In this document: in pieces, positions 23,866 to 52,091 of the stretch
Layout: the number at the start of each line of letters is the position of its first letter
Position numbering within the stretch: position 1 is the first letter of the stretch
NCBI GenBank assembly: GCA_963667145.1
Contig: OY762943.1
Coordinates: 1,236,251-1,300,250, forward strand
Direction: 5' to 3'
DNA: 64,000 nucleotides
DNA from: Candidatus Cloacimonadota bacterium
Lineage (GTDB): Bacteria; Cloacimonadota; Cloacimonadia; G963667145
Program-made: the position numbers and the translations under genes
The notes under the pieces: model-generated
Seen by the model: only the letters and a program-made list of their open reading frames with translations
What the model was told of the DNA's origin: nothing
Databases searched by the model: none

Positions 23866-23874
23866 GTATTATCA

Positions 23875-26848: not shown

Positions 26849-26857
26849 GGAGATAAG

Positions 26858-27847: not shown

Positions 27848-27850
27848 TTT

Positions 27851-31636: not shown

Positions 31637-32712
31637 GTGGGCGGTATGCAGTAAAAGTATCCACCCTTGTTAATTTTTTCTATGTCTCTCGAATAAAAAT
31701 CTGCGATGATGGGATTTATGTTTATGACCTTATAATTAGGCTTTGAAAAATTTTCTCTCAAAATCTGTTTTGGCGATTTCCCACCTCGTCCTCGGTTGCC
31801 ACGAAAGTGATTAAAATACAGCGTGTAGCAGTGGGTTTTGCACAGAAAATCTTCGCAACTTCCAAAATCCTCAATTCTATAAAACTCATCTTCAATCAAG
31901 CGGTGACAACTCTCAACATCTGAATTAAAAGTCGGACTAGCTTTTGGAATAAGCAAATGCTTCGCACCATTTTTGGCTACCATTTTTTCAAAATATGTAA
32001 CGCCTTTCTTCTTATTAACGTGCGTGAATTCCGTGCCATTGTCCGTCTGAAAAGCGACTTTGGAAATATCGACTCCACATTTTGCCAAATTTTTGCACAA
32101 ATAATCGATGTAAATCCCTGTGTTAACACTCGTTTTTTCGTAGCAAAATCCAATGAACTGCATCCCCGATTTATAGTCGCGGGCAGTTATTTGATACTTC
32201 GGGAAATTTTTGTATTTAATCCCCTCAAACAGCTCAGGTAAGTCGGTCAGGTACTTAATATCAACCTGAAATTTCTCGTAAATTTTCGCTTTTTTTCGCA
32301 TCAAGCTCAAGTCTTTTCTGCGTTGGTATCTTCGCTTTTTTTTCTTAATCAAACCTTCGTCGCACAGCTTTTTGTGAACAGTGGAATGCGAGCAATTCAG
32401 CTGAAGATGGTCAATAATTCGTCGTGAACCCCACAGGTTTTTGGATTTATTTCGGCACGTTACAATCTCATCAACCACTTCAGGATTCATGCGATTCGGG
32501 AAAAATTGATTTTTTCGGGACTTGTTATTCAACCCCTCCTCTCCCTTTAAATTATAAGCTTTTACCCATTTTCGCACAGTTTTTCTGGTGGTGTTGAATT
32601 CACGTGCAGCCTCCGAAATAGAAGTTTCTTTGGCGTACTTTACCAACTTTTTTCGGTAATAAACCTTGTACTTTTTATCCATAAAATTCTTATTGCTTTC
32701 GTAATTATTCAT
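31624..32712 (-). CDS. DDE transposase (rve integrase core with N-terminal HTH; IS481-like)
   Basis: 362 aa. HTH (SISEAAREFNTTRKTVRKWVKAY). Integrase core with DNGTEF and ...IEDEF.... The ORF has no internal stop: the last two codons and the TAG stop are supplied by the flanking CRISPR repeat. Confidence 0.8.
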   Translation of the reverse strand: MNNYESNKNFMDKKYKVYYRKKLVKYAKETSISEAAREFNTTRKTVRKWVKAYNLKGEEGLNNKSRKNQFFPNRMNPEVVDEIVTCRNKSKNLWGSRRIIDHLQLNCSHSTVHKKLCDEGLIKKKKRRYQRRKDLSLMRKKAKIYEKFQVDIKYLTDLPELFEGIKYKNFPKYQITARDYKSGMQFIGFCYEKTSVNTGIYIDYLCKNLAKCGVDISKVAFQTDNGTEFTHVNKKKGVTYFEKMVAKNGAKHLLIPKASPTFNSDVESCHRLIEDEFYRIEDFGSCEDFLCKTHCYTLYFNHFRGNRGRGGKSPKQILRENFSKPNYKVININPIIADFYSRDIEKINKGGYFYCIPPTILQ

Positions 32713-32857
32713 AGTGGTCAGATTGAGCTTTCACGAGCTGATTTGACCATTTTTTTCACAATTTACGTGAAAGTTCTAAGCAATCTCCCCATTTTTTTAT
32801 AAACTTTCCTGTTACAAATCTTCAATTTAGGGTGGATACTTTTAGTGTGAACTTTCC
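31637..32857 (-). mobile_element. IS481-family-like insertion sequence (~1.22 kb) inserted inside a CRISPR repeat
   Basis: Imperfect terminal inverted repeats TGGGCGGTATGCAGTAAAAGTATCCACCC / GGGTGGATACTTTTAGTGTGAACTTTCCA share a perfect 16-bp core AAAAGTATCCACCC. A 15-bp direct duplication ACTACTGTAGAATTG of repeat sequence flanks both ends. A single DDE transposase ORF lies inside. Confidence 0.8.
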
Positions 32858-32858
32858 A

Positions 32859-35800
32859 ACTACTGTAGAATTGAAACTTGACTGCACTTTCGACAACTCT
32901 ATCCTCGTTCTCATATTTAAATTAGACTACTGTAGAATTGAAACTGACATCACATTTATTAGGTTTAATTTTGGTCTATATTTAAATTAGACTACTGTAG
33001 AATTGAAACTCGTGCAGGTACGCTCTGATGACGCTGTCAGCAACTATTTAAATTAGACTACTGTAGAATTGAAACAAAGATAAATTAGAGGGTTTATATT
33101 GTGAGCTGGAATTTAAATTAGACTACTGTAGAATTGAAACAGATATGGCGTGAGCCTTTCTGACGCACAATCTGAAATTTAAATTAGACTACTGTAGAAT
33201 TGAAACATGGAGATTAGGCTTGTGTCCGTAAACTCGAAGTATTTAAATTAGACTACTGTAGAATTGAAACTCGAACAAACCGCCTTTGTTGTTCACTCCA
33301 AGTAAATTTAAATTAGACTACTGTAGAATTGAAACTTGGTAAATTGTTGTAATTAAAAAATAGTGGCAAAAAATTTAAGTTAGACTACTGTAGAATTGAA
33401 ACAATTTTCTTTGCCTTATTCGTCAATATTTTCAAGGATATTTAAATTAGACTACTGTAGAATTGAAACACTTTTGTTGAATTATTCAAACCCTTGTCTT
33501 TATTATATTTAAATTAGACTACTGTAGAATTGAAACTTACAAGCTCCTTGAAATACTTCTGAATTGCATAACAATTTAAATTAGACTACTGTAGAATTGA
33601 AACTTTGTAGGTGCAAGTAGTTCGGCTCTTTCTTTGTCCGATTTAAATTAGACTACTGTAGAATTGAAACATGTTATTACCGTTACAAAGATGATGGAGG
33701 GAAAATACAATTTAAATTAGACTACTGTAGAATTGAAACTCGGCTGGCATATTGGTTGTATAGTCGATTGACAAAATTTAAATTAGACTACTGTAGAATT
33801 GAAACAAGGATTTGTAAAGATGGGTTGCTCTTATCCATTGGATTTAAATTAGACTACTGTAGAATTGAAACGGAGTAAAGTAAGTTTTGTCCCGACACGA
33901 CCGTGATAATTTAAATTAGACTACTGTAGAATTGAAACTTGTGTGTATTCGTTCTTTTTTTGTCTCGTCAGCATTTAAATTAGACTACTGTAGAATTGAA
34001 ACAAAATTTAAGAGGAGTATCATCGGTTAAACTGTTACCATTTAAATTAGACTACTGTAGAATTGAAACTAACCCGAATATTGAGAGCGTTTGCCTCGGC
34101 TGGGAATTTAAATTAGACTACTGTAGAATTGAAACACGAAATTCTCAATTTGGTTTTGAATTGACTCCAAATTTAAATTAGACTACTGTAGAATTGAAAC
34201 CTGCTTTTTGCTGATTGTTGTTTAGCTCCATCCAATTTAAATTAGACTACTGTAGAATTGAAACATCACAATGAAGAATGTAAACGCTTTTGTCTTATTG
34301 CAATTTAAATTAGACTACTGTAGAATTGAAACTTAATAGGCTCAAAAACAACTGCATTTCCTGAAGAATTTAAATTAGACTACTGTAGAATTGAAACTTT
34401 GCAGTGTTAACGATGTACATATCAAAAGAAGCCAATTTAAATTAGACTACTGTAGAATTGAAACACAAAGAGGGAGTGGCACTTACATTTTTGTGGATTT
34501 TATTTAAATTAGACTACTGTAGAATTGAAACAGGAGCTTTATGATAATGCGATGGAAACAGCAAAGCATTTAAATTAGACTACTGTAGAATTGAAACAAA
34601 GAGTTTAGTCAACCTCTACCTGCTATAAAAGTATTTAAATTAGACTACTGTAGAATTGAAACCTCAACAATGAATGCGACAAACCCATATATGCCAAAAT
34701 TTAAATTAGACTACTGTAGAATTGAAACTTTCGGCGGTATGAGCTTTATTCAAATGATTTACCCAATTTAAATTAGACTACTGTAGAATTGAAACCCCTA
34801 AAATAGCGGACTTGGTAGAAGAAAAAACAGAAATTTAAATTAGACTACTGTAGAATTGAAACATGCTTGAAAAAATTTATTTGATGTTTGGTGGGAAAAT
34901 TTAAATTAGACTACTGTAGAATTGAAACATTTTAAGGCTTGAAAATGTGGGGATTTTTGTCAAATTTAAATTAGACTACTGTAGAATTGAAACGATATTT
35001 AGTAGGATTGATTCTTTATATAAGTTTGAATTTAAATTAGACTACTGTAGAATTGAAACTTTGCAGTGTTAACGATGTACATATCAAAAGAAGCCAATTT
35101 AAATTAGACTACTGTAGAATTGAAACTAAAATCTGTCGTATGCCCCCTCTTCAACTCCCATTATTTAAATTAGACTACTGTAGAATTGAAACACAAAGAG
35201 GGAGTGGCACTTACATTTTTGTGGATTTTATTTAAATTAGACTACTGTAGAATTGAAACCTTGGTATTTACAAAGTGGAGGTCAAAGGAAGTTGCAGAAT
35301 TTAAATTAGACTACTGTAGAATTGAAACGGGTACTTGTCATTCTTGTAGCTCACAAAATACCGAGATTTAAATTAGACTACTGTAGAATTGAAACGTGCT
35401 TTACCTCCAAGTACATACTCCGCATGTTCCAATTTAAATTAGACTACTGTAGAATTGAAACAATTTAACCTCAGAGACTTTCACATTCAGCAAATAGGAT
35501 TTAAATTAGACTACTGTAGAATTGAAACCCGAAATAAACAATGCTGGTGTTGTTATTCAAAGTGAATTTAAATTAGACTACTGTAGAATTGAAACAGGAG
35601 CTTTATGATAATGCGATGGAAACAGCAAAGCATTTAAATTAGACTACTGTAGAATTGAAACATAGCATCCTTAATCTTTGCCAAATTACCATCAAGGATT
35701 TAAATTAGACTACTGTAGAATTGAAACAATTTAACCTCAGAGACTTTCACATTCAGCAAATAGGATTTAAATTAGACTACTGTAGAATTGAAGCCCGAAA

Positions 35801-36125
35801 TAAACAATGCTGGTGTTGTTATTCAAAGTGAATTTAAATTAGACTACTGTAGAATTGAAACAGGAGCTTTATGATAATGCGATGGAAACAGCAAAGCATT
35901 TAAATTAGACTACTGTAGAATTGAAACAGAAAATTTTGGAGTTTTTTTCATTTTTGGAAAGAGATTTAAATTAGACTACTGTAGAATTGAAACAAGCTAT
36001 TCTTGGGGGAAATAAAATGAGTAAATGAATATTTAAATTAGACTACTGTAGAATTGAAACATTTTAAGGCTTGAAAATGTGGGGATTTTTGTCAAATTTA
36101 AATTAGACTACTGTAGAATTGAAAC
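32859..36125 (+). CRISPR. CRISPR array, distal half (about 50 repeats), resuming with the 3' part of the split repeat
   Basis: It has the same repeat as the proximal half. It includes the variant repeats ATTTAAGTTAG... (about 33372) and ...GAATTGAAGC (about 35790). Confidence 0.95.
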
Positions 36126-36181
36126 TATGAGAGATTTATAAAAAAATACGACCGTCCAGAATTTGATAACGTCTCAAAGTT

Positions 36182-36671
36182 GGTGTAAATTTAAAAAGTA
36201 AAAAATGGTCACTTTTGCTCTTATGTTACAAAAAGTTAACACGAGGAGGCAAAAATGACCAACAACCATGATAAAAAACTTGAAGAATTTACAAATTTTG
36301 TCAAGGATGAAACGAGTAATAATTTAACAAAAATTTTGAAAACAGCTGTACATCAACTGTTTCAAGCAGAATTAGAATCATATTTGAATGCTAAAAAATA
36401 TGAGAGAAATCAGGAGCGAACAACTTATAGAAGTGGATTTAGAACTAGAAAACTTGCCACTAGTTTAGACGATGAGAAAAAATCATTTAGGATTTTTTCA
36501 TAGTTGTGAAAGTTGTAATCTTCTAATTGGAGCAATTTTAGTTCAGCAAAATGAGGATTGGCTTGAAGGACTAACCTATATGAGTATAATAAAAAAAGAG
36601 CCAACTTACGGAAAAAACTCAAGTTAGCAGAAAATTTTTAGAAATAATTAAAACATGAGAGAATTTACACC
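36182..36671 (+). mobile_element. Putative internally deleted IS256-family remnant bounded by 10-bp inverted repeats GGTGTAAATT / AATTTACACC
   Basis: The terminal inverted 10-mers are at 36182-36191 and 36662-36671. It encloses an 82-codon ORF resembling the N-terminus of IS256-family transposases. Confidence 0.35.
36255..36503 (+). pseudogene. Truncated IS256-family (mutator-type) transposase, N-terminal fragment only
   Basis: LTKILKTAVHQLFQAELESYLNAKKYERNQERTTYRSGFRTRKL parallels the IS256 Tnp N-terminus (...NQLMENQRTEYIQAKEYERTENRQSQRNGYYER...). It stops after 82 aa and the catalytic DDE region is absent. Confidence 0.6.
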
Positions 36672-36696
36672 ACAAATGAGACTTGACTCCGATTTC

Positions 36697-36726
36697 ATTT
36701 AAATTAGACTACTGTAGAATTGAAAC
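36697..36726 (+). repeat. Orphan CRISPR repeat 570 bp beyond the array end
   Basis: An exact 30-bp copy of the array repeat, separated from the last array repeat by the IS256-like remnant. Confidence 0.9.
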
Positions 36727-37063
36727 TATGGTTATACAAATAGAGATAGATTATGCAAAGGATTTAGTTAACTTGAAAAGTTTTTTTTGGCTGTGAGACG
36801 CCCTCTACTGTAAGGCAACAAAAAAGGTCGCAATCCTTTAGGACTACGACCCCAATTCCGGAGAAGAATTGAACCCTCTATAGTCAGTCAAAAAAAAGAG
36901 GGCTTTCTAATCAGTCTATCATCTTAGAGGGGAGAAAAGAAAATTCCCCTCAAACTATTTTGTTCATGGTTAAAAAGGTTTATAACTATAGATTGAATAA
37001 GCTAAAAACTATTTAACAAATTGTTGATTAGTGGAAAATAATTGCAAGAAAAAGTTTGATTTT

Positions 37064-40000
37064 TTAGTTAGAGAAAGCGGGTTTGTTTGCAAGTAACCAA
37101 GCATTTGCATTTGTGTCAAACCCAGGAGGTGTAGGGAGGAACTGAGTCCATGTATTCCAGTTAATAAGATTTTGGTTGAAAATAGAAGCCCCGTTGAACA
37201 TATATTCCATATTGTTTACTTTACTCAAATTCCAGTCACTAATATCTTGATCGAAACCGCGAGCACCAGTAAACATCCAGCTCATATTTTCTACATTAGC
37301 AGTTTTTTCTTTCCAGTTGCCAATATTACCGTTGAATGCAGTGTTTCCGTAAAAGAGGCTACTCATGTCTTTTACATTGATTACATTCCATCCGCCGATG
37401 TCTTGATTGAAAGGAGTTTCTCTGAACATGGCTGCCATGGTGGTCACTTTGCCTACATCCCAGCTACTTATATCTTGGTTGAAGGAACTTGCTTGATAGA
37501 ACATATAACTCATGTCATTTACATTGCTAGTTTTTGTTCCCCAGTTACCTATGCTGTCGTTAAAAGCGGTTGCTCCGAAGAACATACCACACATAGTGGT
37601 ATCGTTGCTTACATCCCAGTTACTAATTTTACCATTAAAAGAGGATGCAAATTTAAACATACCGTCCATCGCTTTTACTTTGCTCACGTTCCAATTGTTA
37701 AGGTTTTGATTGAATGCTTTACAACATTTTATGGTATCATCACCGCCGAACATATAACCCATGTCTTCTACGTTGCTAACATCCCAGCCACCAATTTCTT
37801 GGTTGAATGTGGTGTTTTCAAAGAACATATATCTCATATTTTTTACACTGCTCACTGTCCAGCCAGTAATATCTGCGTTGAAGGATTGAGCTCTGCAGAA
37901 CATACTGGTCATATCTGTTACCTTGCTCACGTCCCAGCCACTAATGTCTCCATTAAAGGCTTTGGCATCTGTGAACATATTACTCATATTTGTTACGCTA
38001 TCCACTTTCCAGTTGCTGAGGTCTTGATTGAATAGAGTATCGCCATAGAACATAAAGCTCATGTCTTTTACTCTGCTTACATCCCAGTTGCTGATATTTT
38101 GGTCGAAGTTACCATTATCCTTAAACAATCTGCTCATATCCGTAATCTCGGAGGTGTTGACTTTTTCTACATTTTCGCCGTTTGCTATCTTTGTTCTGAG
38201 ATCTTCTATGGTTATAGCAGGTATTGTCATCCTTATAGTGAAGTTGTTTCCAGTGCTGTCTCCGTTGGTGGTGTTCACAGCTATTGAACTAAGTGAAGTT
38301 GCTGTTGTTGCATCATAGTCAGTTGGCACGGTGAGTGCTACCGTATATGTTCCCGCCAAAAGTCCGCTGAAGGAGTATATGCCACGGTCGCCAGTAGTTG
38401 TGGTTTTATTGGAACTCCCGCTCAGAGTTATAGTTGCCCCCTTATAGGTAGCTCCAGTAACTGTGCTGACTTTGCCTGAGATGGAATAAGTTGGTGTCAG
38501 ATTGAAGTTGTTGTTTGTGCTGTCGGCGTTGCTGACGGTGATAGATTTGGTGGTATCGTCAGCGATGTAACTATTAGGGATAGTTAGGGTTACGTTGTAT
38601 GAGCCGTTTAGCACATTGAAAGCATAATCGCCGTTGGCATCTGTGGTGACAGTGTCGTTGAAATCAACAATCGGAGAAGTATTAGAAGTTCCGCTCAATC
38701 TTAAGGTGTCGCTTCCGTGTCCTGTCACTTTTCCAGAGACGGTATGATATTTCCATATGGCGAAATTTTTCCATGATATGTTGGAAGAAGTTAAACTGAC
38801 AGATATAGTTGTTGTGGGGGCATAATATCCACTTGGAGTGGTGAGCCTTACTTCGTATGAACCAGTAGTTGTTATTCCGCTGAATTTGTATGACCCGTCG
38901 CTTGCTGTGGTTGTGGTGGCAACGGAATCTTTTGAAACTCCTGGAACTACAAAATACAACTTCAACGTAGCATTTTCATATTTTTCTCCAGTAGCTCCGT
39001 TAGACACTTCTCCTGAGATAAAGTAAGTTTGTGTTAGCGTGAAGTCGTTGCCAGTGCTGTCAGCTTCGTTTATGTCTATGTCTAATGTTGTGTCGTTGGC
39101 AATCCAATCTTCAGGAATATCTATGGTTACATGGTATTTTCCACTTACCAATCCGTCGAAGGAGTAGTTTCCACTGACCCCTGTGAGAGTGGCAGAAGAG
39201 TCTCCGCTCAAGGTCAAAGTGACACCTCCATAGTTAAGGATAGATCCCTTGATGGAATAGGTCTTTTGTATAGTGAAGTTTTGCCCCGTGACGTTGTCAT
39301 TGCTAATCGTGATGGAGAGCGTTGTGTCTTTCGTGAAGTAACCAGTCGGGTTAGTGAGTTTGACTGTGTAATCTCCTGTTACTAATCCGCTGAAGGAGTA
39401 TGAGCCGTCGCCTATCGAGGTGGTAGAGGCGATGGAGTCTGCACTGGAGTTATACAAAGTCAGATATGCACCATCTGTGTAGTCGGAGGTGTTACTTCCG
39501 CTCAGGATGTTGACCTTGCCCAAGATGGAATAAGTTGGAATTAGCGTGAAGTCGTTGCCAGTGCTATCGGCATTATCTATGGGGATAGATTTGGTGGTAT
39601 CGACAGCGATGTAGTTCTCGGGGATAGTCAGAGTTAGGTTATAGGTTCCGTTTATTGCTTTGAAAGAGTAGTTCCCATTTTCATCCGTAACTGTTGTATC
39701 AGCGAAGTCTGTGAGTATAGTAGTAGTTCCGCTCAATCTTACGGTGTCGTTTCCATGTCCCGTAACTTTGCCAGAGACGGTGTATTTTTTCCATAAGGTA
39801 AAGTTGATTGTTTTGTCATTAGAATAGATTATGGTTGTGGGAGCTGAGTCGGTAACAAAATAGTCGCTTGGAGTAGAGAGTGTTATTGTGTATGTGTTGC
39901 CAGTTGATGACCCTAATACTCCACTGAATTTGTATTCACCGTTGATGTCTGTGGTGGCAGTGGCGATTTGATTTCCGCCAAAGCTCAAGGTTAAGGTAGC

Positions 40001-43000
40001 GTTTGCAATTTTTTCATCGTTATTCGCTGGAGCAGTAACAGTTCCCGAGATATTGTATGTCTGAGTCAGATTGAAGTTGTTGTTTGTGCTGTCGGCGTTG
40101 TTGACGGTGATAGATTTTGTGGTATCGTCAGCGATGTAGTTCTCGGGGATAGTCAGAGTTAGGTCATATGTTCCGTTTATTGCTTTGAAGGAGTAGTTGC
40201 CACTGCCATCTGTAACTGTTGTATCAGCAAAGAATGTGCCTGCATTAGTATTTCCGCTCAATCTTAAGGTGTCGTTGCTGTGTCCTGTGACCTTACCAGA
40301 GACGGTGTGATATTCCCAAATGGTGAAGTCTTGATTCGGTATATCACCACTCAGTGAGGAGACGTTTATGGTAGTGTCGGCGGAATAGTAATTGCTTGGC
40401 GTCGAGAGAGTTACTGTGTAGTTTCCTGCCACTAATCCGCTGAAAAAGTATGCACCATTCGTCGTTGGAATTGTTTTGTTCGCCGTCAAAGAGCCACCGC
40501 TTATCGTCACGTTGGCACTTCCCGTGAAGTTGCTACCGTTGAGCTTCACATTCCCCGAGATGGAATAAATCGGAGTCAGATAGAAGTCTTTTGTTACATT
40601 GCCTCCGCTTATCGTTATTGTCGCCGTGGTGTCGTCAGCGATGTAGTTCTCGGGGATAGTCAGAGTTAGGTCATATGTTCCGTTTATTGCTTTGAAGGAG
40701 TAGTTGCCACTGCCATCTGTTACTGTTGTATCAGCAAAGAATGTGCCTGCATTAGTATTTCCGCTCAATCTTATGGTGTCGCTTCCGTGTCCTGAGACCT
40801 TACCAGAGACGGTGTGGTATTCCCAAATGGTGAAGTCTTGATTCGGTATATCACCACTCAGTGAGGAGACGTTTATGGTAGTGTCGGCGGAATAGTAATT
40901 GCTTGGCGTCGAGAGAGTTACTGTGTAGTTTCCTGCCACTAATCCGCTGAAAAAGTATGCACCATTCGTCGTTGGAATTGTTTTGTTCGTCGTCAAAGAG
41001 CCACCACTTATCGTCACATCGGCACTTCCAGTGAAGTTGCTACCGTCGAGCTTCACATTCCCTGAGATGGTGTAAGTCGGGGTTAGATTGAAGTTCTTGG
41101 CGACATCGCTTCCGCTTATAGTTATTGTCTCGATGGTATCGTCGGCAATGTAGTTCTCGGGGATAGTCAGAGTTAGGTCATATGTTCCGTTTATTGCTTT
41201 GAAGGAGTAGTTGCCACTGCCATCTGTTGCTGTTGTATCAGCAAAGAATGTGCCTGCATTAGTATTTCCGCTCAATCTTAAGGTGTCGTTGCTGTGTCCT
41301 GTGACCTTACCAGAGACGGTGTGATATTCCCAAATGGTGAAGTCTTGATTTGGTATATTGCCACTCAGCAAGGAGACGTTTATGGTAGTATTGGCGGAAT
41401 AGTAACCGTTTGGTGTTGAGAGAGTTACTATGTAATTGCCTGCTTCCAATCCGCTGAAGGAGTATGAGCCGTCGCTTGTCGAGGTGATAGAGGCGATGGA
41501 GTCTGCACTGGAGTTATACAAAGTCAGAGTTGCACCATTGTATGTTCCGCTCGGCGAGATGTTGACTTTACCCGAGATGGAATAAACTGGAGTTAGCTTA
41601 AAGTTTTTGGGAATAGGGCCCGTCACAGTGTATGTTTCTGTTGTGTCATCGGCAATGTAATTATCAGGGATTGTTAGAGTTATGGTATATGTGCTGTCTT
41701 TTATTAGCCCTGCGAATGTGTATGTTCCGCCGTTCCCATTTGGAGTTGCTTGATGCACTTGGTTGTTTGCGTAGTCGGTTAGAGTCACGGTAACAGTTTC
41801 ACTGCTGTATCCAGTGATTGTTCCACCTATGGAATAAGTCGGAGCCAGCGTGAAGTCTTGATCTGGAGTGTTTGCACTCAGTGAGGAGATGTTTATGGTA
41901 GTGTTGGCACAATAGTAACCACTTGGTGTTGAGAGAGTTACGGTGTAATTTCCTGTCGTTAATCCGCTGAAGGAGTATGCACCATTCGTTGTTGTAATTG
42001 TTTTGTTCACCGTTAGAGAGCCACCGCTTATCGTCACATCTGCACTTCCCGTGAAGTTGCTTCCGTTGAGTTTAATATTCCCTGAGATGGTGTAAGTCGG
42101 AGTCAGATTGAAGTCTTTGGTTATATTGCCTCCGCTTATCGTTATTGTCTCGGTAGTATCGTCAGCAATGTATGTACTGGGGATAGTTAGCGTTAGAGTA
42201 TAGTTTCCGTCTATTGCATTGAAGGAATAGTTGCCACTGCCATCTGTAACTGTTGTGTCAGCGAAGACTGTGTTTGCATTAGTATTTCCGCTCAATCTTA
42301 AGGTGTCGTTGCTGTGCCCTGTGACCTTGCCAGAGACGGTGTGGTATTCCCAAATGGTGAAATTTTGCCCCGTGATGTTGGCATTGCTGATGGTAATGGA
42401 GAGAGTTGTGTCTTTTGAGAAGTATCCGCTCGGGTTAGTGAGCTTCACTGTGTAGTTCCCTGCCACTAATCCGATGAAGGAGTATGAGCCGTCGCTTGTC
42501 GAGGTGGTAGAGGCGATGGAGTTTGCACTGGAGTTATACAAAGTCAAAGTTGCACCGTTATTATATGATGCCCCGCTCGGCGAGATGTTGACAGCACCCG
42601 AGACAGTGTATGTTTTTTCCGTGATAGTGAAGTCGTTCCCCGTGCTGTCGGCATTGCTTAGTGTTACGGATTTTGTTGTAGTTGTGGCTGTGTAGTTGTT
42701 AGGAACTGTGAGTTTCACCGTGTAAGTGCCTGCCTCAATTCCTGCGAACGAATATGAACCATTGGCATCGGTAGTATCGCTCGACAAAGCTGTGGAGGAG
42801 GAATCGAAAAGAGTTAAAGTAGCATTTTGGTATTTGCTTCCTGTTGATGTTGTTACGTTTCCAGAAATTGTGTATGTTACTACAGTAATGGTAATGTCGT
42901 TGCCAGTAGTGTTGTTATTCTCCATCTTAACCGTGATGGTCTCAGTTTTGTCTTCTGGAAGTAAAACGGTTATGGTATAGTCTCCATTTTGGGTCACTGT

Positions 43001-43729
43001 AAAAGAGTATGACCCGTCTTCTCCAGCTACAATTGTGTCGATAGTGGGTCCGCTCAAAACTATTGTGGCACCACTATAAACTCCTCCGATAGATTTTTTA
43101 AGCACGCCAGATATTGAGTAGGTTTTGGTAATAGTAAAGTCGTTTCCAGAGCTGTCTGCTCCACTCAGGATGATATGTTTTTCAGTTTCCGAGGAAATGT
43201 AAGTGTCTGGCACAGTCAAGGTTACAGTGTATGAGCCGTCAGCTAAGTTGGGGAAAGAATACGTGCCGTCACTTGCTGTAGTTGTGGTGGCACTGGAAGC
43301 TCCGCTTAGCGTTACAGTTGCCCCGCTGTATTTTTCTCCAGTGGATGTGGAGACTGTGCCTGATATGGAATAGAGGCTTTTAATGATAAAGTTGTTGTTG
43401 GTACTGTTAGCACCGCTCAATAACACTGTTTTTGTAGTTGTATCGGAAACATAATCACTAGGAACGGTAAGAGTTAATGTGAAAGAGCCTGTTGGAAGAT
43501 TTTTAAAAGAGTAATTGCCAAGGCTATCAGTCGTAATGCTAGCGGATTTGGAATTGTTGCTCAAAGTTATGGTGGCACCTTTGTATGCTACTCCTTCAGA
43601 AGTTTTGACCACACCAGAAATTACATAACTGTAAGAATTGTAGGAGCTTACAGTCGTTTCATAGTTAGTGCAAGAAAGCAAAAGAATAATGAAAAACAAG
43701 ATAAATAAAAAAATATTTCTTTTTTTCAT
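37064..43729 (-). CDS. Giant (~2221 aa) surface lipoprotein: about 17 tandem Ig-like/Cna-B (CarboxypepD_reg-like) domains plus a C-terminal ~500-aa array of DUF285-type 26-aa repeats
   Basis: The start is chosen at ATG 43729 (MKKRNIFLFILFFIILLLSCTNY, a lipobox). The tandem modules run YSISGxVxTSTGxxYxGATxTLSG...GxYSFxxLxxGxYTVTLTxPxxY. The C-terminal units run FNQDISNWDVSxVxDMSxMFxxAxxFN. The DNA carries near-identical tandem repeats of about 500-560 bp (e.g. around 40120, 40640, 41130). Confidence 0.75.
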   Translation of the reverse strand: MKKRNIFLFILFFIILLLSCTNYETTVSSYNSYSYVISGVVKTSEGVAYKGATITLSNNSKSASITTDSLGNYSFKNLPTGSFTLTLTVPSDYVSDTTTKTVLLSGANSTNNNFIIKSLYSISGTVSTSTGEKYSGATVTLSGASSATTTTASDGTYSFPNLADGSYTVTLTVPDTYISSETEKHIILSGADSSGNDFTITKTYSISGVLKKSIGGVYSGATIVLSGPTIDTIVAGEDGSYSFTVTQNGDYTITVLLPEDKTETITVKMENNNTTGNDITITVVTYTISGNVTTSTGSKYQNATLTLFDSSSTALSSDTTDANGSYSFAGIEAGTYTVKLTVPNNYTATTTTKSVTLSNADSTGNDFTITEKTYTVSGAVNISPSGASYNNGATLTLYNSSANSIASTTSTSDGSYSFIGLVAGNYTVKLTNPSGYFSKDTTLSITISNANITGQNFTIWEYHTVSGKVTGHSNDTLRLSGNTNANTVFADTTVTDGSGNYSFNAIDGNYTLTLTIPSTYIADDTTETITISGGNITKDFNLTPTYTISGNIKLNGSNFTGSADVTISGGSLTVNKTITTTNGAYSFSGLTTGNYTVTLSTPSGYYCANTTINISSLSANTPDQDFTLAPTYSIGGTITGYSSETVTVTLTDYANNQVHQATPNGNGGTYTFAGLIKDSTYTITLTIPDNYIADDTTETYTVTGPIPKNFKLTPVYSISGKVNISPSGTYNGATLTLYNSSADSIASITSTSDGSYSFSGLEAGNYIVTLSTPNGYYSANTTINVSLLSGNIPNQDFTIWEYHTVSGKVTGHSNDTLRLSGNTNAGTFFADTTATDGSGNYSFKAINGTYDLTLTIPENYIADDTIETITISGSDVAKNFNLTPTYTISGNVKLDGSNFTGSADVTISGGSLTTNKTIPTTNGAYFFSGLVAGNYTVTLSTPSNYYSADTTINVSSLSGDIPNQDFTIWEYHTVSGKVSGHGSDTIRLSGNTNAGTFFADTTVTDGSGNYSFKAINGTYDLTLTIPENYIADDTTATITISGGNVTKDFYLTPIYSISGNVKLNGSNFTGSANVTISGGSLTANKTIPTTNGAYFFSGLVAGNYTVTLSTPSNYYSADTTINVSSLSGDIPNQDFTIWEYHTVSGKVTGHSNDTLRLSGNTNAGTFFADTTVTDGSGNYSFKAINGTYDLTLTIPENYIADDTTKSITVNNADSTNNNFNLTQTYNISGTVTAPANNDEKIANATLTLSFGGNQIATATTDINGEYKFSGVLGSSTGNTYTITLSTPSDYFVTDSAPTTIIYSNDKTINFTLWKKYTVSGKVTGHGNDTVRLSGTTTILTDFADTTVTDENGNYSFKAINGTYNLTLTIPENYIAVDTTKSIPIDNADSTGNDFTLIPTYSILGKVNILSGSNTSDYTDGAYLTLYNSSADSIASTTSIGDGSYSFSGLVTGDYTVKLTNPTGYFTKDTTLSITISNDNVTGQNFTIQKTYSIKGSILNYGGVTLTLSGDSSATLTGVSGNYSFDGLVSGKYHVTIDIPEDWIANDTTLDIDINEADSTGNDFTLTQTYFISGEVSNGATGEKYENATLKLYFVVPGVSKDSVATTTTASDGSYKFSGITTTGSYEVRLTTPSGYYAPTTTISVSLTSSNISWKNFAIWKYHTVSGKVTGHGSDTLRLSGTSNTSPIVDFNDTVTTDANGDYAFNVLNGSYNVTLTIPNSYIADDTTKSITVSNADSTNNNFNLTPTYSISGKVSTVTGATYKGATITLSGSSNKTTTTGDRGIYSFSGLLAGTYTVALTVPTDYDATTATSLSSIAVNTTNGDSTGNNFTIRMTIPAITIEDLRTKIANGENVEKVNTSEITDMSRLFKDNGNFDQNISNWDVSRVKDMSFMFYGDTLFNQDLSNWKVDSVTNMSNMFTDAKAFNGDISGWDVSKVTDMTSMFCRAQSFNADITGWTVSSVKNMRYMFFENTTFNQEIGGWDVSNVEDMGYMFGGDDTIKCCKAFNQNLNNWNVSKVKAMDGMFKFASSFNGKISNWDVSNDTTMCGMFFGATAFNDSIGNWGTKTSNVNDMSYMFYQASSFNQDISSWDVGKVTTMAAMFRETPFNQDIGGWNVINVKDMSSLFYGNTAFNGNIGNWKEKTANVENMSWMFTGARGFDQDISDWNLSKVNNMEYMFNGASIFNQNLINWNTWTQFLPTPPGFDTNANAWLLANKPAFSN

Positions 43730-43867
43730 CTTAAAACATGCCCCCGCTAAATTCACAACCTTTCGTAAAACAATTTCAAATTCAATTTACACAATCCAAT
43801 GTTACTATTGGTGTAAAAAAATCAACAAAAATTATAATTTTTTGTAAGATTGTTTGGAATTTTTTGT

Positions 43868-45037
43868 CTACAGCCCTCTGCTATCAAGTTCAATGGGATA
43901 GGCAAATTCAAAGAAGATTTTGTTTTCGCTGTCGGTTCTGCCGTAAGTGAATTGGACATTTACGTTAATTGGAGGCTGAAAATAAAATTCCACACCGCAT
44001 CCGTACGCAAATTTATTGGTGTTGTCATCAAAATTTGAGCCCCAAGTTTTTATCCCATCCACGAAGATTAGCGGAGAGATGAATTTGCTCATATCCCAAA
44101 ATAAGTCGAAAGAGAGCAGAGTGGAGTTTAAGCTGTATTTTTGTGAATTTAATTCCGATCTGAATTTTTTGCTGCCTTCGTTATTTTCGTAATTAGTCAA
44201 TTTTCCTGTGTTTTTGTTAAAGTGTGAATATAGGCGTGTTCGGTTTCTAAAGTTTTCAGCCCATTGGGAATAGCAAAAGTATTCACTGTTGATGCCATCG
44301 TAGGAGGCATCTTTGAATTTCAACTCTGATTTGAAAAAATTGCCTTTGGTGGTTTTGATGATTTTGTCTCTTGTGTCTATGCAGAAGTATGGATTTATGC
44401 TGAAAGAGTTATCTTCCAAGGTGCGGTTGTCACTTTCGGAATTTTGCAATTTTGCTTTGCTTCCTAAGTAATAGAAATCTCTCAATTTAATTCGCAAATC
44501 TATGTCGTAGTAAATTTTGTCTATGTTTTGATTTTTGATTTCTTCTTCGGATTTACAGGCTTGAAATCCTAAGGAAGCAAACTTGCTAATTGGTTGCCAA
44601 GCACTGAGTTGCACAAAGTTTTTGCCTGCTTCCACTCCGACAAATATTCCTCGATTAAACAAATTGTTCATTCCCAAAAATAGGGGATGTGTGCCTCCGC
44701 CAATTCGCGGACGAAAGCCGTCTTCTAGTTCGATAATTATTTTTACGACAGAGGTGTCTTTTGCGATTTGATAAATTTCGACTTTGTAAAAAAATCCCAG
44801 CTCGATTAATCTTTGTTTGCTGTTTTCGATTTTGTGTTGCAAACTCAGGATGTCATAGTAAGCATTTTCTCGAATAGGAATGTGGTAAAGCACAGCGTCT
44901 TTTGCCATTTTCGTTTTCCCACAAACTTTTATTTTATCGACAAGCAAAGTTTTGGCATAGCCAAGGTTTGCAGTTGTCAGCAAAATCAGAAAGAGCAATA
45001 GCTTAATCTTGCTTGAATGCAAGGATATGTTAGTCAT
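43868..45037 (-). CDS. Putative Omp85-family outer-membrane protein with an N-terminal POTRA-like domain
   Basis: Signal peptide KIKLLLFLILLTTANLGYA. There is a POTRA-like beta-alpha-alpha-beta-beta segment (LLVDKIKVCGKTKMAKDAVLYHIPIRENAYYDILSLQHKIENSKQRLIELGFFYKVEIYQIA...VKIIIEL). Alternating aromatic beta-strand patterns continue to the C-terminus (FAYGCGVEFYFQ...QFTYG). Its start overlaps the TPR gene stop by 8 bp. Confidence 0.5.
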   Translation of the reverse strand: MTNISLHSSKIKLLLFLILLTTANLGYAKTLLVDKIKVCGKTKMAKDAVLYHIPIRENAYYDILSLQHKIENSKQRLIELGFFYKVEIYQIAKDTSVVKIIIELEDGFRPRIGGGTHPLFLGMNNLFNRGIFVGVEAGKNFVQLSAWQPISKFASLGFQACKSEEEIKNQNIDKIYYDIDLRIKLRDFYYLGSKAKLQNSESDNRTLEDNSFSINPYFCIDTRDKIIKTTKGNFFKSELKFKDASYDGINSEYFCYSQWAENFRNRTRLYSHFNKNTGKLTNYENNEGSKKFRSELNSQKYSLNSTLLSFDLFWDMSKFISPLIFVDGIKTWGSNFDDNTNKFAYGCGVEFYFQPPINVNVQFTYGRTDSENKIFFEFAYPIELDSRGL

Positions 45038-45737
45038 CGAAAAACACCTCTAATTCTTTTTCTGCCAAGTCTTTGTAGTAATTAGTGGTTGAAATTGCAA
45101 TTGTTTTTTCCCAATACTCTTTGGCTTCCATCAGTTTCTTTTCACTCTTAAACATCTCTCCAGCAAAATAGTAAATAGCTTCTAACACACTGTTGTCAAA
45201 CCTATTAGGATTTTTGTTTGTTAGCTCTAGGAAGTATTTTACATCAGCAAAGAAAACCTCTTGGCGTTTGAAAAAATCTGGTAACGAGGGCGAATTATTC
45301 AAGCGAACCAGTCGCACATCGATATTGCTCTCGTCCATTGCCACAGCTGTGTCTATCAAGGCGATTCCTTGGTCAACAAATTTGATTTTGTTCAGCGGAT
45401 TTGCTGCGTCTCTGCCCATCAGAGTTCTGGCACTTCCCAAATATACCAGAGCCAAGGCGTTTTCTCTATCAAGTTCACAAGCTTTTTTCAGATAGTTGTG
45501 AGCAATTTCCGAGGTGGTTTGATTTCCTCCTACGCTGATGTTGTGGTAGGCAATTCCCAAGATGAGCAAAGCATTGGTGTCCTCAGGGTTATCTTGGAAT
45601 ATTTTTTCGTATTTTTCGGTTATTTTGTTCAACTCTTTTTCATCGTGCATGGAAGCTACGGAAGAAATTGTTAATTCATTTGCTAACAATAAAATAGACG
45701 AGAAAGATAGTAGCAGAATTAGATAAAATTTTTTCAT
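45030..45737 (-). CDS. Secreted TPR-repeat protein
   Basis: Signal peptide MKKFYLILLLSFSSILLLA. There are multiple TPR-like helical pairs (LLILGIAYHNISVGGN..., ALALVYLGSARTLMGRD...). Confidence 0.65.
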   Translation of the reverse strand: MKKFYLILLLSFSSILLLANELTISSVASMHDEKELNKITEKYEKIFQDNPEDTNALLILGIAYHNISVGGNQTTSEIAHNYLKKACELDRENALALVYLGSARTLMGRDAANPLNKIKFVDQGIALIDTAVAMDESNIDVRLVRLNNSPSLPDFFKRQEVFFADVKYFLELTNKNPNRFDNSVLEAIYYFAGEMFKSEKKLMEAKEYWEKTIAISTTNYYKDLAEKELEVFFDD

Positions 45738-45781
45738 AATTTATTTCCTTTCATAAATTAAGGTTAATTTGAGAAATATTT

Positions 45782-46969
45782 TTAGAAATAGTACAACAAC
45801 TTCAGATCACAATAGAGGCTGTAAAATGTTTGGTTGAACTCCGAATAGCTCTTCCCATTTTGCCAAGAGATGGTGGATTTTATTGAGTAGTCGTCGTTTA
45901 GGTTGTAGGTGTTTTCGTTGTAGAGCAGATAGGAAAAATCGTAAACATTGATTTTACTTCCGAAATTTGCATCAATCTTTTGGAGGATGTTTTGCTTGTT
46001 GAGGGAAATGCCGATGTAGTGTCTGCACAAATCTACGCGGTTTTTGTAAAGAGTTGCCAGATAACTTTTGCTAACTTGTCTGAAGATTTGGTCGCTTTCT
46101 ATTTTTCGGAAGAAATTGCCGTATTCAGCCTCTGAAAATCCGATTTGATTGTAATAGTACTCCAAAGTCATGTCGAAGTCGTTGGGCAACAAGGCTTTCA
46201 CTCCGAAAGTCGATTGAGCGTAAAATTTTTCGTTGTCCTCCGAATGGAGATAAGAGTAATACTTGGTTTCCTTTATGGAATATCTTTTTTCGGGCTGTGA
46301 GAGTTTGCTATCCAGTTGAAAAATGACGCTCTTAAATTTGGGATGAGAGTAGGAAGCACACAAGGTGTAATTTTGCAAATTGTCGCCGATGTCGTAGGTA
46401 GAGAGGAAGTTGAAGTTTAGGTTTTTGACGCTTTGGGACACGACAATTCCCGCAAGGTCTTTGTCTTGGTCAGCGAGGTTTTTGTAGGAAGAATTTTTGA
46501 GCTGTGGAATGTAAAACAGACTAATGGAGCGGTAAGTGATTTTCTCCATCCAGTAGCCACTGACCTCGTTTCGCGAGTACTTTTTGCTGTAAATATCGCC
46601 AAAATCCCAGTTCTCGGAATTGCTGTAAATCAAGGTGTTTTTCCCCTGAGAGAAAATCAAATTGTCGCACGGGAAGTATTCCAAATTGAGCGAATAGAGG
46701 TAGAGATTGTCTTTTTGTTCTTTCAAGTCGAACGAGTATTTTTCTCGGAAGTTGAAAAGCAACTTTTCGCTCAGGACAAAATCGCCTTGCAAGTCCCACG
46801 CCAATGGGTAATTGAATTTGTGGTCTTGGGTGTGGAAAAGGGAGTTGTCTTTTTGGTGCAGGTATTCCACGGGAATTTCAAGCGTGTTCAAAAAGGACAA
46901 ATCCACAGCTTGCAAAAGTGAAAAAAGGAGCAAGAAAACTGCACAAGTTTTTTTCATTTTTCCTCTCAA
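45782..46969 (-). CDS. Hypothetical outer-membrane beta-barrel-like protein (395 aa)
   Basis: It has a signal peptide, alternating aromatic/hydrophilic beta-strand patterning throughout, and the C-terminus ...LKLLYYF ends in an aromatic residue, as is typical of OMPs. Confidence 0.45.
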   Translation of the reverse strand: MRGKMKKTCAVFLLLFSLLQAVDLSFLNTLEIPVEYLHQKDNSLFHTQDHKFNYPLAWDLQGDFVLSEKLLFNFREKYSFDLKEQKDNLYLYSLNLEYFPCDNLIFSQGKNTLIYSNSENWDFGDIYSKKYSRNEVSGYWMEKITYRSISLFYIPQLKNSSYKNLADQDKDLAGIVVSQSVKNLNFNFLSTYDIGDNLQNYTLCASYSHPKFKSVIFQLDSKLSQPEKRYSIKETKYYSYLHSEDNEKFYAQSTFGVKALLPNDFDMTLEYYYNQIGFSEAEYGNFFRKIESDQIFRQVSKSYLATLYKNRVDLCRHYIGISLNKQNILQKIDANFGSKINVYDFSYLLYNENTYNLNDDYSIKSTISWQNGKSYSEFNQTFYSLYCDLKLLYYF

Positions 46970-46970
46970 C

Positions 46971-47711
46971 TCATCGAACGAATTTCAGATAAGACGGCTG
47001 AAAAATGTCGTCAGAATAATTTTTTTGCTTATCCGAGATGACCTGCATTTCGTAGTAGCCGTCTTTGTTGAGGATGTTGTTGCCACGCATCTTTTTGGGC
47101 ATATCGTTCACATAGTCGCGATAGAAGGCTGTGCCGAACAAAATCCCGCTTTTGGTGTAGTTTTCCACTTTCAAGAGTTTTCCCTTATCGACGGAATTTT
47201 CTATGGTGAAGTAGGAAACTTTTTTGTAGAAAGCGGGCTTTTTTCCTTCCTTGGCGGAAAACTCGATTACCAAAGTGTCTGCATTTTGCCTCAGCAATTT
47301 GTAGTGGTAGTTTTCCAAAAGTGGCGGAGTCATTATTTCGCCGATGACCACACCGCCAAACATTCCACTGCGGGGCGAAATCCGCGAATATTTTTTTGCC
47401 TTGGGGAAGTAGATGTAGTAGGAGTTGTCTTTTTGCAGGAAGACCTTGCCCTTTTGCTTTTTTGGAGACAGGAATACAGTTAGCGTGTTGCTTCCCTTGG
47501 TCATCAACTTCAGCTTCACGGTGCTTTTGATTTCGCCGTTTTTGTCCATTTCGTCGGTTTGGAGTATTCGCTCGAAAGAGTAATATTTTTTTTCAATTTC
47601 GCCAATTCTCTTCACGGCTCGTTCCAAAAGCTCCTTTTTGTCCATTTGGTTTTGGGCGAAGAGGCAACTTCCCGCAAGCACCAACGATGCCAAAAATATT
47701 TTCTTAATCAT
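46971..47711 (-). CDS. LolA-like/outer-membrane lipoprotein-sorting-like periplasmic protein
   Basis: 246 aa with a signal peptide (MIKKIFLASLVLAGSCLFAQ). Its size and beta-rich profile, and the gene order directly downstream of an FtsX/MacB-type permease, match LolA-like proteins found with such ABC systems. There is no strong motif proof. Confidence 0.45.
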   Translation of the reverse strand: MIKKIFLASLVLAGSCLFAQNQMDKKELLERAVKRIGEIEKKYYSFERILQTDEMDKNGEIKSTVKLKLMTKGSNTLTVFLSPKKQKGKVFLQKDNSYYIYFPKAKKYSRISPRSGMFGGVVIGEIMTPPLLENYHYKLLRQNADTLVIEFSAKEGKKPAFYKKVSYFTIENSVDKGKLLKVENYTKSGILFGTAFYRDYVNDMPKKMRGNNILNKDGYYEMQVISDKQKNYSDDIFQPSYLKFVR

Positions 47712-48948
47712 ATCTTAGCCCTTCCACGATATTTATTTTGGTGGATTTTACAGCAGGAATGATGCTCCCGAAAATTCCCAAGAAGATGTTTAAGACGATG
47801 ATTTTCAGAGACATAGCGAATGTGGTGATTACCATAAATGGCGTTCCTTCCGATTGTCCCGGGAATGGAGGCAAAATGACGTCGGAAAAGTTGATGATGA
47901 TGGCGGAGATTTTTGCCAAGATTATTCCGAGAATTCCTCCGAAAATGCAGATGAAGCATCCTTCCAAGATGATGAGCAAGAAGATGGACGATTTGCCGAT
48001 GCCGATAGATTTCATAGTGGCGATTTCGCGGGTTCGCTCCATGATGGACATGAAAATGGTGTTGGAGACCAGCACGATGATGAGGATGACCAACATGATG
48101 GTGACAATGCCGAGGATGTTGTCGAACATCTGTGTAACTTGGCGGAATTCTTTGGCGAGCTGAAGCCACGATTTTATTTCCATATCCAAATTGTTTTTCT
48201 TGAATTCGCTTTGCAGGAAGCTCGTTACAGCTGGAATATCGTCTCGGCTATCCAAAAGCACGGGCATGGAATGGATGTTCTCCGTGAGTGTGATGTCTTT
48301 GGTCAAATCCAAATTCGTCAGAATCAAAATCTCGTTGATGGCATCGATGGAATAGTCGGCAACTCCGCGGACTTTCGCTGCCACAGCCTCAAAAGAGTTG
48401 TCAACGCTTTGTCCCATCAGCAAGACCTCATCGCCGAGGTTCAGCTCCATTTTTCTCGCCATATCTATGGGAACGACCACGCCAGTTTTTTCTTTTTCGG
48501 ACAAGGGTTTGCCATTCTTGATGTTGGAGTCTCCATAGGAACTGCTGTTGAACGAAGCCATCATTTTTTCTTTTTTGGGTTGCATACCTTGTGCAAAAAA
48601 CATCTTGGAAGTGGTTTCTGTGCCGATGAGTCCGACAAGATTTACCCGCTCCAGAGAAAGCAAAATCTTATCGTTATTTTTGCAGATTTCGTAAATTTTG
48701 GCTTTCTCTTCTGGAGTGATGGAATTTTTGAACGAGGTGTTTTCTCCGTCCAAATAGCCACTTTTGAAGATTTGCAAATGTCCGTATTGGAAGTGGATGA
48801 GTGCGTCCGACCAAAAGTAGTTTCGGGCGTTGTTGTAGCCAGCAAAGGTGAGCAGACAGGCGGAACTGATGATGACACTGAGCATAGTCAGCAAAGTTCG
48901 GCGTTTGTTGCGGAAGATATTTCTGAGGGCTAATTTTAGCAGTTTCAT
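47704..48948 (-). CDS. ABC transporter permease, FtsX/MacB/LolCE family (TM1 + ~220-aa periplasmic domain + 3 TM)
   Basis: The N-terminus MKLLKLALRNIFRNKRRTLLTMLSVIISSACLL is followed by a long soluble domain and a C-terminal FtsX-like TM bundle (...MSIMERTREIATMKSIGIGKSSIFLLIILEG...). Confidence 0.85.
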   Translation of the reverse strand: MKLLKLALRNIFRNKRRTLLTMLSVIISSACLLTFAGYNNARNYFWSDALIHFQYGHLQIFKSGYLDGENTSFKNSITPEEKAKIYEICKNNDKILLSLERVNLVGLIGTETTSKMFFAQGMQPKKEKMMASFNSSSYGDSNIKNGKPLSEKEKTGVVVPIDMARKMELNLGDEVLLMGQSVDNSFEAVAAKVRGVADYSIDAINEILILTNLDLTKDITLTENIHSMPVLLDSRDDIPAVTSFLQSEFKKNNLDMEIKSWLQLAKEFRQVTQMFDNILGIVTIMLVILIIVLVSNTIFMSIMERTREIATMKSIGIGKSSIFLLIILEGCFICIFGGILGIILAKISAIIINFSDVILPPFPGQSEGTPFMVITTFAMSLKIIVLNIFLGIFGSIIPAVKSTKINIVEGLRYD

Positions 48949-49691: not shown

Positions 49692-49692
49692 C

Positions 49693-50373: not shown

Positions 50374-50376
50374 AAT

Positions 50377-50643: not shown

Positions 50644-50657
50644 AAAAATTCTCCTTC

Positions 50658-52079: not shown

Positions 52080-52091
52080 AAAGGAATTAAC

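Follow-up and report, generated by a model that had tools for sequence, protein, structure and literature searches.

What kind of surface protein is encoded by a 6.7-kb gene made largely of repeated domains, and how does such a gene change between closely related strains? The question is raised by a lipoprotein gene of Candidatus Cloacimonadota bacterium (assembly GCA_963667145.1, contig OY762943.1), located in a stretch of 64,000 nucleotides (positions 1,236,251 to 1,300,250 of the forward strand) which we call the window and in which coordinates are given. The explanation which we favour, and consider probable, is that the product is a lipid-anchored, adhesin-like fibril with a tip resembling leucine-rich repeats (LRRs), and that its domains are gained and lost by recombination or slippage, giving alleles of differing length and composition. 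The following features define the architecture.

37064–43729, minus strand: coding sequence of the lipoprotein, 2,221 amino acids (aa), from the list of open reading frames (ORFs) and the translation; stop codon at 37064–37066, alternative GTG start at 43756.
43670–43729, minus strand: signal peptide with lipobox, MKKRNIFLFILFFIILLLS followed by Cys20, read from the sequence.
38228–43627, minus strand: stalk of 21 tandem beta-sandwich domains of ~85 aa (aa 35–1834), from Pfam, segmentation, identity matrix, AlphaFold2 and Foldseek.
37106–38107, minus strand: ~13 PARCEL/DUF285 repeats of 25 aa (aa 1875–2208), a predicted LRR-like solenoid head, from PF03382, TIGR02167, the 25-aa register and AlphaFold2.

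The reading frame at 37064–43729 is uninterrupted over 2,221 codons counted from ATG. Use of the GTG start, 27 nt upstream, would add nine residues (2,230 aa). The N-terminus, MKKRNIFLFILFFIILLLSC, reads by eye as a basic n-region followed by a hydrophobic core and the cysteine of a lipobox; the K/R-rich n-region, the hydrophobic stretch and the cysteine are kept in all three orthologues (P0002, P0003 and P0004). By this pattern the protein appears to be a bacterial lipoprotein, with signal peptide, lipobox and invariant cysteine. The earlier note had described a giant lipoprotein, and both the intact reading frame and the conserved, lipoprotein-like N-terminal signal agree with this.

Beyond the signal peptide, segmentation delimits 21 domains of 78–98 aa (aa 35–1834), a short linker and then 12–13 PARCEL repeats. 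In the stalk, Pfam finds CarboxypepD_reg (PF13620, E = 6e-110, 360 bits, 16 stretches), SdrD_B (PF17210, E = 2e-109, 360 bits, 16 stretches) and SpaA (PF17802, E = 1e-71, 237 bits, nine stretches). Hidden Markov model scores above the cutoff and the predicted fold both place these domains among the transthyretin-like beta-sandwiches of the CarboxypepD_reg/SdrD_B/SpaA group. The structure of one module, a step which the earlier note had suggested, was predicted with AlphaFold2 for aa 803–971 (one two-domain unit, 37-sequence alignment): the model is all-beta and consists of two beta-sandwiches, with a predicted local distance difference test score (pLDDT) of 96.1. When the Protein Data Bank is searched with Foldseek, its top match is the SdrD A2-A3-B1-B2 crystal structure (SdrD B domains, E = 1.5e-9); its best matches also include CnaB-type pilins (GBS52, SpaA, Spy0128), SpyCEP domains and NOMO. 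The structures matched are stalk or spacer domains.

In composition the protein is rich in Thr (16.6%), Ser (11.9%) and Asn (9.6%). The motif D-[ST]-[AILVMT], the O-glycosylation sequon of Bacteroidota, is found 44 times against 16.5 ± 3.6 in shuffled sequences, in copies which lie in repeated domains and are not independent of each other.

The C-terminal 17% of the protein is formed by the PARCEL tract. The assignment of these repeats to DUF285, made in the earlier note, holds in a Pfam search: PF03382 matches with E = 7.8e-108 (355.3 bits against a cutoff of 25) over about 13 repeats of 25 aa. The NCBIfam model TIGR02167 (PARCEL repeat-containing surface protein) scores 83.1 bits against a cutoff of 30. 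The 12–13 units follow the pattern FNxxIxxWxVSxVxxMxxMF with invariant F, W and M columns, at intervals of 24–27 aa, apart from two irregular ones (31 and 52 aa). Both the family cutoffs and the tandem 25-residue array identify the tract as PARCEL/DUF285. No solved structure is detectable by sequence for this part, and the Pfam search of the protein yields neither LRR_5 nor any other LRR family. In the AlphaFold2 model, the C-terminal 387 aa (pLDDT 88.3, predicted template modelling score 0.84) form a solenoid to which every 25 residues contribute one short strand. The significant Foldseek matches of this model in the Protein Data Bank are all leucine-rich-repeat proteins (TLR13, SHOC2, InlJ and the BspA-like 4gt6, 4fs7 and 4h09). 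Family matches and predicted models together establish the domain architecture and the folds. The type IX secretion C-terminal sorting domain PF18962, present in many DUF285 homologues, has no match in the Pfam search of the protein.

In the molecule which we envisage, the N-terminal lipid anchor would hold the protein at the cell surface, the 21 transthyretin/CnaB-like beta-sandwich domains would form a rod ~80 nm long, and the LRR-like PARCEL (DUF285) solenoid at the rod tip would be the likely binding module. The distal position of the PARCEL repeat supports a ligand-binding role. From lipid anchor, long rod and LRR-like tip together we infer an adhesin-like fibril. In Lactococcus lactis, a DUF285 protein contributes to adhesion (PMC5071367), and mycoplasmas express PARCEL lipoproteins as variable surface antigens (Roske et al. 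2010, PMC2996958).

How, then, might the number of domains change? Two further segments of the stalk are needed here.

40119–41432, minus strand: sole near-identical DNA repeat block, 2.6 copies of a 507-bp unit (repeat family D1, 94–97% identity, 507-bp spacing).
39533–41584, minus strand: central block, domains 9–16 (aa 716–1399), replaced in a conspecific allele (domain-by-domain comparison with P0002).

The 507-bp unit, equal to 169 codons, encodes a pair of dissimilar domains: type A (HTVSGKVTGH...), then type B (YTISGNVKLNGSNFTGSA...). The units at aa 803–971 and 972–1140 share 93.3% identity along all 507 bp; the match of the third copy is limited to ~190 nt, and the block reaches slightly into domain 9, which precedes the units. 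Identity within the block, which occupies ~1.3 kb of the gene, is 93–97%. An 89-nt stretch quoted in the earlier note lies at 40125, 40632 and 41139 with 0, 0 and 2 mismatches and has no match in any of 100 shuffles; the repeated peptide module quoted with it is likewise present in the protein. The longest exact direct repeats measure 172 bp (spacing 507), 121 bp (spacing 1014), 89 bp and 81 bp, all in frame. They suffice for homologous recombination but are not the long perfect repeats that had been described.

Outside the block, most domain pairs are 47–64% identical in DNA, and a few related pairs reach 67–85% (e.g. domain 6 with 10, 12 and 14, or domain 7 with 11 and 13). Protein identity among these domains is ~26–85%, and adjacent stalk domains share merely 28–57%. 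Tandem Repeats Finder, at default settings, reports solely a 75-bp PARCEL array. The earlier picture of tandem units of 500–560 bp with over 90% identity consequently applies to ~1.3 kb at 40119–41432 and not to the rest of the gene; the 507-bp unit is present in 2.6 copies. Synonymous divergence (dS) between the 507-bp copies is 0.11–0.30, so the duplication in this strain is not very recent.

In the mechanism which we propose, the related DNA of the stalk domains, with its registers of 252 and 507 bp, would allow unequal homologous recombination or replication slippage to add or remove whole domains in frame, and recombination with divergent alleles would replace segments. A population would then carry alleles differing in both length and composition. 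Such alleles were found. A collection of 5.8 billion proteins contains the same architecture in four: P0001, which is identical to the window protein, forms a single-member cluster and is encoded on a 1,539,614-bp contig, and the orthologues P0002 (2,458 aa), P0003 (1,839 aa) and P0004 (1,614 aa). All four alleles have an intact reading frame. The GTDB representative genomes contain nothing related to the giant protein, and a scan of Joint Genome Institute metagenomes returned only distant DUF285 proteins (27–40% identity), with no close or further alleles. The window species is also represented in the samples SRR34447542, SRR34447546 and SRR34447523.

P0002 is encoded on contig L001 of sample ERZ21831251, whose upstream flank is 96.9% identical to window 43855–51797 and 97.4% identical to 52368–53434. 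With a dS of 0.03–0.16 in the flanking genes as well, L001 passes the conventional 95% species threshold and is conspecific with the window. At 24 domains and 2,458 aa, its allele is longer than that of the window, which has 21 domains and 2,221 aa. Window domains 1–8 match L001 domains 1–8, and window domains 17–21 match L001 domains 20–24. Window domains 9–16, the 507-bp repeats included, have no positional counterpart in L001, which has 11 extra copies resembling domain 8 at this place. With the flanking copy, this array comprises 12 tandem 252-bp units of a domain that the window holds once. Nine of the 12 units differ from the reference unit at 0–3 positions, the edge copies at 15 and 22, and the longest exact repeat of the L001 allele reaches 755 bp. 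The near-identity of most units points to a very recent amplification.

A second pair of close relatives comes from one sample, ERZ21862645. The sister-species contigs L002 (circular, 1.59 Mb) and L003 have flanks 95–96% identical, and their giant proteins are 98–99.8% identical where aligned, interrupted by in-frame indels of 166, 89 and 27 aa. The 166-aa indel is one two-domain unit with 95.6% DNA identity to the adjacent unit, the 89-aa indel is one domain and the 27-aa indel corresponds roughly to one PARCEL repeat. Unequal recombination or slippage between repeats would be expected to leave such traces. Whole units thus differ in number, in frame and between close relatives, as in other copy-number-variable tandem-repeat surface proteins, and the gene is polymorphic in both length and composition. 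The earlier note had predicted that domain number varies between strains, which both pairs confirm; between the two conspecific strains, however, the difference does not lie in the 507-bp units which the note had flagged, as the central block differs as a whole.

Copy number is only part of the difference between the two conspecific alleles. Domains 18–19 are near identical (dS 0–0.04) and domains 2, 7, 8, 17 and 20 are flank-like (dS 0.09–0.21), whereas the signal peptide, domains 1, 3, 4, 5 and 21 and the whole PARCEL region show a dS of 0.4–2.5. The alleles are mosaics of recent and ancient segments, and much of their divergence arose by mosaic replacement, not by copy-number change alone. 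As synonymous sites are affected, the high-dS segments appear to have been imported from divergent alleles and not merely driven by amino-acid selection.

The strongest competitor of this explanation is a static architecture: old duplications would have been retained for structural reasons, as a long stalk in which alternating A and B domains keep neighbours dissimilar, and length differences would be rare events rather than an adaptive mechanism of variation. Several observations which weigh against our own explanation bear on this one too. The window repeats are as old as or older than the split of the strains and have not been recently homogenised, their dS equalling or exceeding that of the flanks. 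Identity above 90% is confined to 2.6 units, and adjacent domains are dissimilar at the level given above. No signal of positive selection is seen at whole-domain resolution: the Nei–Gojobori ratio of nonsynonymous to synonymous divergence (dN/dS) is 0.13–0.54 for every domain pair, below 0.55 throughout (0.04–0.26 for most flanking genes). Two further points weigh against our own explanation: the collections contain only two alleles of the window species, which show variation between strains and not that inside one population or on short time scales, and the template modelling scores (TM-scores) of the PARCEL model to LRR structures are low (0.2–0.39). Against a static gene stand the two independent pairs of close relatives (~95–97% flank identity), both of which differ in domain number, and the 12-unit array of one allele, whose mostly near-identical copies imply very recent amplification. 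We therefore regard the static architecture as possible but rather unlikely. The window block itself, being short (2.6 units) and 3–7% diverged, probably changes at a modest rate compared with the near-perfect 12-copy array of its conspecific.

How does the fibril compare with known surface proteins? The PARCEL surface lipoproteins (Mycoplasma mycoides LppQ, the Mbov_0838 family; PMC2996958) share with it the tandem 25-residue repeats with conserved F, W and M and variable copy number, the N-terminal lipoprotein signal, a patchy accessory distribution and variation between close relatives, here the one-repeat indel between L002 and L003. They differ in that the PARCEL tract is here restricted to the C-terminal end of a stalk of 21 beta-sandwich domains. 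The window protein also falls short of the Mbov_0838 family model (NF045896, 231.6 bits against a cutoff of 500) and, unlike the mollicutes, its host is probably diderm, as genes for POTRA and LolA-like proteins adjoin. Lastly, the nucleotide dyad symmetry published for PARCELs is not detectable here in a simple self-reverse-complement test (best identity 31.6% against 32.5 ± 1.0% for codon-shuffled sequence), a test which does not reproduce the published palindrome method.

The stalk has its closest parallel in Gram-positive surface proteins. The B-repeat stalks of the microbial surface components recognizing adhesive matrix molecules (MSCRAMMs; SdrD, SdrC, Cna) and the CnaB pilins belong to the same fold family and also use tandem copies as a stalk which projects a binding domain. 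In these stalks, too, the number of B repeats varies between strains. Unlike MSCRAMMs, the window protein has no LPXTG sortase anchor, A-domain or SD repeats, and its C-terminus ends ...LANKPAFSN. Its polarity would be reversed, with an N-terminal lipid anchor and a C-terminal binding module. Scores are far below the cutoffs of the SdrD (NF012181, 45.7 against 2,500) and SdrC (NF000535, 19.3 against 1,700) models. Furthermore, no conserved isopeptide lysine is seen in the stalk-domain alignment.

As regards variation, the alpha C/Rib proteins of group B streptococci, Esp, Bap/SasG and Leptospira Lig also consist of in-frame whole-domain repeats of near-identical DNA, comparable to the 12 x 252 bp of L001, and show strain length polymorphism, which is ascribed to recombination between the repeats. 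The window protein is unrelated to them in sequence, and in its allele the repeats are far from identical. In addition, no link to immune escape is known for this bacterium, which is uncultured and either environmental or host-associated. NCBI lists the nearest named homologues of the DUF285 part as 'BspA family' LRR surface proteins, and the AlphaFold2 tip model resembles LRR solenoids including 4gt6, 4fs7 and 4h09. The absence of a Pfam LRR match, the low TM-scores and a 25-aa repeat with the signature FNQxIxxWDVSxVxxMxxMF set the window protein apart from that family.

DUF285/PARCEL proteins as such are very common (7,825 matches among 8,000 candidates), and 70,020 cluster representatives match a query spanning the junction of stalk and PARCEL tract. 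Giant proteins are frequent among them, with PARCEL tracts joined to Ig-like or PKD domains. Three proteins matching across the junction (P0393, P0433 and P0453) were considered as cases of the same architecture and rejected, as they carry PKD or Calx-beta domains and not CarboxypepD_reg. Among the best hits, a CarboxypepD_reg stalk with a PARCEL tip is seen only in this small clade. The general principle, in which a stalk bears a head of repeats and the number of repeats varies between strains, is standard among bacterial surface proteins.

The surroundings of the gene also vary. In L002 and L003, the giant gene lies between a Fer4_20/Pyr_redox oxidoreductase gene and a methyltransferase (ogt-like) gene. 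The corresponding site is empty in L084 (2723–7859) and L085 (3984–7856), where a CN_hydrolase or ogt gene adjoins the oxidoreductase gene with no giant gene between. These genomes measure ~1.56–1.58 Mb and have SurE identities of 74% and 71%; the absence of the giant gene at this site makes it accessory within the clade. SurE relatives occur at 88%, 74% and 70–71% identity, mostly on contigs of ~1.55–1.59 Mb, the next ones at 54% and then ~44%, the level of the nearest named sequences (Candidatus Cloacimonetes). The best GTDB-representative matches of the neighbouring oxidoreductase are at most 52% identical and come from Firmicutes and others.

In the window species, ~10 kb are inserted upstream, with a LolA-like gene, FtsX/ABC genes, a POTRA protein and a caspase-like peptidase. 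Directly upstream of the giant gene and on the same strand (43868–50373, minus) lie genes for an ABC ATPase, a 248-aa protein, an FtsX-like permease, a LolA-like protein (PF17131), a 395-aa protein, a tetratricopeptide-repeat protein and a POTRA-containing 389-aa protein. This cluster might be an export set for lipoproteins or surface proteins, and its POTRA and LolA-like members suggest a diderm host. Its adjacency to the giant gene is kept in L001 and absent in the sister species. The caspase-like Peptidase_C14 gene encodes 360 aa as listed in the window (52092–53174, plus) against 487 aa in L001 (261–1724); a break in the alignment of the two contigs at 51797–52368 points to an indel or a start-site difference in this gene. 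At 5431–10503 (minus), the window further encodes a large predicted secreted protein of 1,690 aa with GLUG motifs and a ~113-aa periodicity.

Downstream of the giant gene, L001 carries a tandem paralogue and then ogt, and the window has neither. The paralogue (L001 17432–20368) has 978 aa, a lipoprotein-like N-terminus, ~7 stalk domains and PARCEL repeats, and is ~41% identical to the giant protein. At this low identity, a derivation of the window's central block from the paralogue was rejected. In the window, a conserved 142-bp segment is followed by an array of clustered regularly interspaced short palindromic repeats (CRISPR) with 101 copies of ATTTAAATTAGACTACTGTAGAATTGAAAC (28311–36726), which ends ~340 bp from the giant gene's stop codon, and by a low-GC type I-B-like cas operon (19564–28114, 24–32% GC) with Cas6, a 583-aa protein, Cas7, a 271-aa protein, Cas3, Cas4, Cas1 and a short Cas2-sized ORF. 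The array is interrupted by a 1,273-bp insertion sequence (transposase ORF 31624–32712, helix-turn-helix and rve_3) and by a 571-bp non-repeat gap (36126–36696). Fifteen of its 100 spacers occur two or three times, and a block of nine consecutive spacers that starts at 29721 recurs 598 bp further on, from 30319, so the array itself has undergone internal repeat-mediated duplication. L001 lacks the entire CRISPR-Cas island at the equivalent position, and neither L002 nor L003 has an array there.

These surroundings bear on the question of function. Instead of an adhesin, the protein might be a surface-layer or spacer component, or a phage receptor or decoy, and its allelic diversity might result from phage rather than host pressure. 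The locus is indeed a hotspot of variability, the gene being absent at the same site in two related genomes; the CRISPR-Cas island abuts the gene in the window strain only; and deeply divergent mosaic alleles are expected under frequency-dependent selection. Set against this, the CRISPR adjacency is not conserved in the other three contigs, no spacer or phage data tie the array to the gene, and stalk-plus-LRR architectures are classically adhesins. We consider a non-adhesive role unlikely.

Somewhat more doubtful still is a larger scheme, in which the locus would be a dedicated diversification hotspot of these ~1.55-Mb bacteria and the fibril would be under frequency-dependent selection by phages or hosts. 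A different module would be amplified in each strain, divergent segments would be imported, and the adjoining CRISPR-Cas island would reflect the same phage pressure. If this were true, the fibril would serve the lineage as its principal organelle of host contact or be the main receptor for its phages.

Could the repeats, or their number, be an artefact of assembly by collapse or expansion? Repeat-rich genes are often misassembled, and an independent short-read Logan contig (L100, SRR34447542) breaks exactly at the start of the repeats, at window 42477. This contig corresponds to window 42477–48444 at 100% identity, covers the 5′ 1.25 kb of the gene and ends inside domain 5, exactly where sequence common to other domains starts. 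The break is what a real repeat is expected to cause in a short-read assembler, and the 5′ end of the gene is matched perfectly. Moreover, the protein is encoded on a 1.54-Mb contig, and related contigs, several of them circular at ~1.55–1.59 Mb, carry names in the style of a long-read assembler (ctg...c, ctg...l), from which we infer a long-read assembly. The longest exact repeat is 172 bp and copies are distinguishable at many sites; all four alleles are in frame, and all indels are whole-domain and in frame. An artefact, which the earlier note had named as a possible refutation, is thus very improbable.

Programmed variation by a diversity-generating retroelement, by site-specific inversion or cassette recombination, or by a phase-variable promoter as in the vsp/vlp systems of Mycoplasma is scarcely credible: the mosaic alleles and the L001 paralogue as a donor in principle would fit, but no reverse transcriptase, invertase or recombinase gene adjoins, the sole transposase lies inside the CRISPR array, there are no simple-sequence tracts or convincing inverted repeats around the promoter, and the paralogue is only ~41% identical and missing from the window genome. 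Tandem Repeats Finder and a scan for upstream inverted repeats found no simple-sequence tract or invertible promoter, weak AT-rich inverted repeats only, and in the window annotation no reverse transcriptase, recombinase, invertase or silent cassette accompanies the gene. There is no evidence for programmed, phase or high-frequency antigenic variation, and the potential for antigenic variation raised in the earlier note was overstated.

Two minor features accompany the gene.

36824–36853, minus strand: terminator-like hairpin followed by a T-run, ~210 nt past the stop codon (consensus scan).
37172–38035, plus strand: codon-aligned antisense ORF of 287 aa over the PARCEL region (count of stops in the antisense frame).

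The hairpin sits within the 142-bp segment (36820–36961), which is 99.3% identical to the DNA after the second paralogue in L001. An Rfam search of the whole window gave no match. The antisense frame contains two stops in 388 codons over the PARCEL coding DNA against 68 in 1,800 over the stalk. The ORF at 37172–38035 shows its own 25-aa periodicity, without similarity to the sense protein, and is probably a by-product and not a gene; the nearly stop-free frame may reflect codon choice or a property of PARCELs.

Taken as a lipid-anchored fibril with variable domains, the protein offers a sequence-level example, in an uncultured lineage with small genomes, of how a giant surface protein changes. 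In strains ~97% identical, one allele has amplified a single stalk domain 12-fold, the other carries a different block of eight domains, and deeply divergent sequence has taken the place of other segments. As a strain marker the gene is well suited; it is also a trap for short-read assemblies, as the Logan contig that breaks at the first repeat illustrates. Finally, the architecture places the widespread and structurally unsolved PARCEL/DUF285 repeat at what would be the distal tip of a long stalk.

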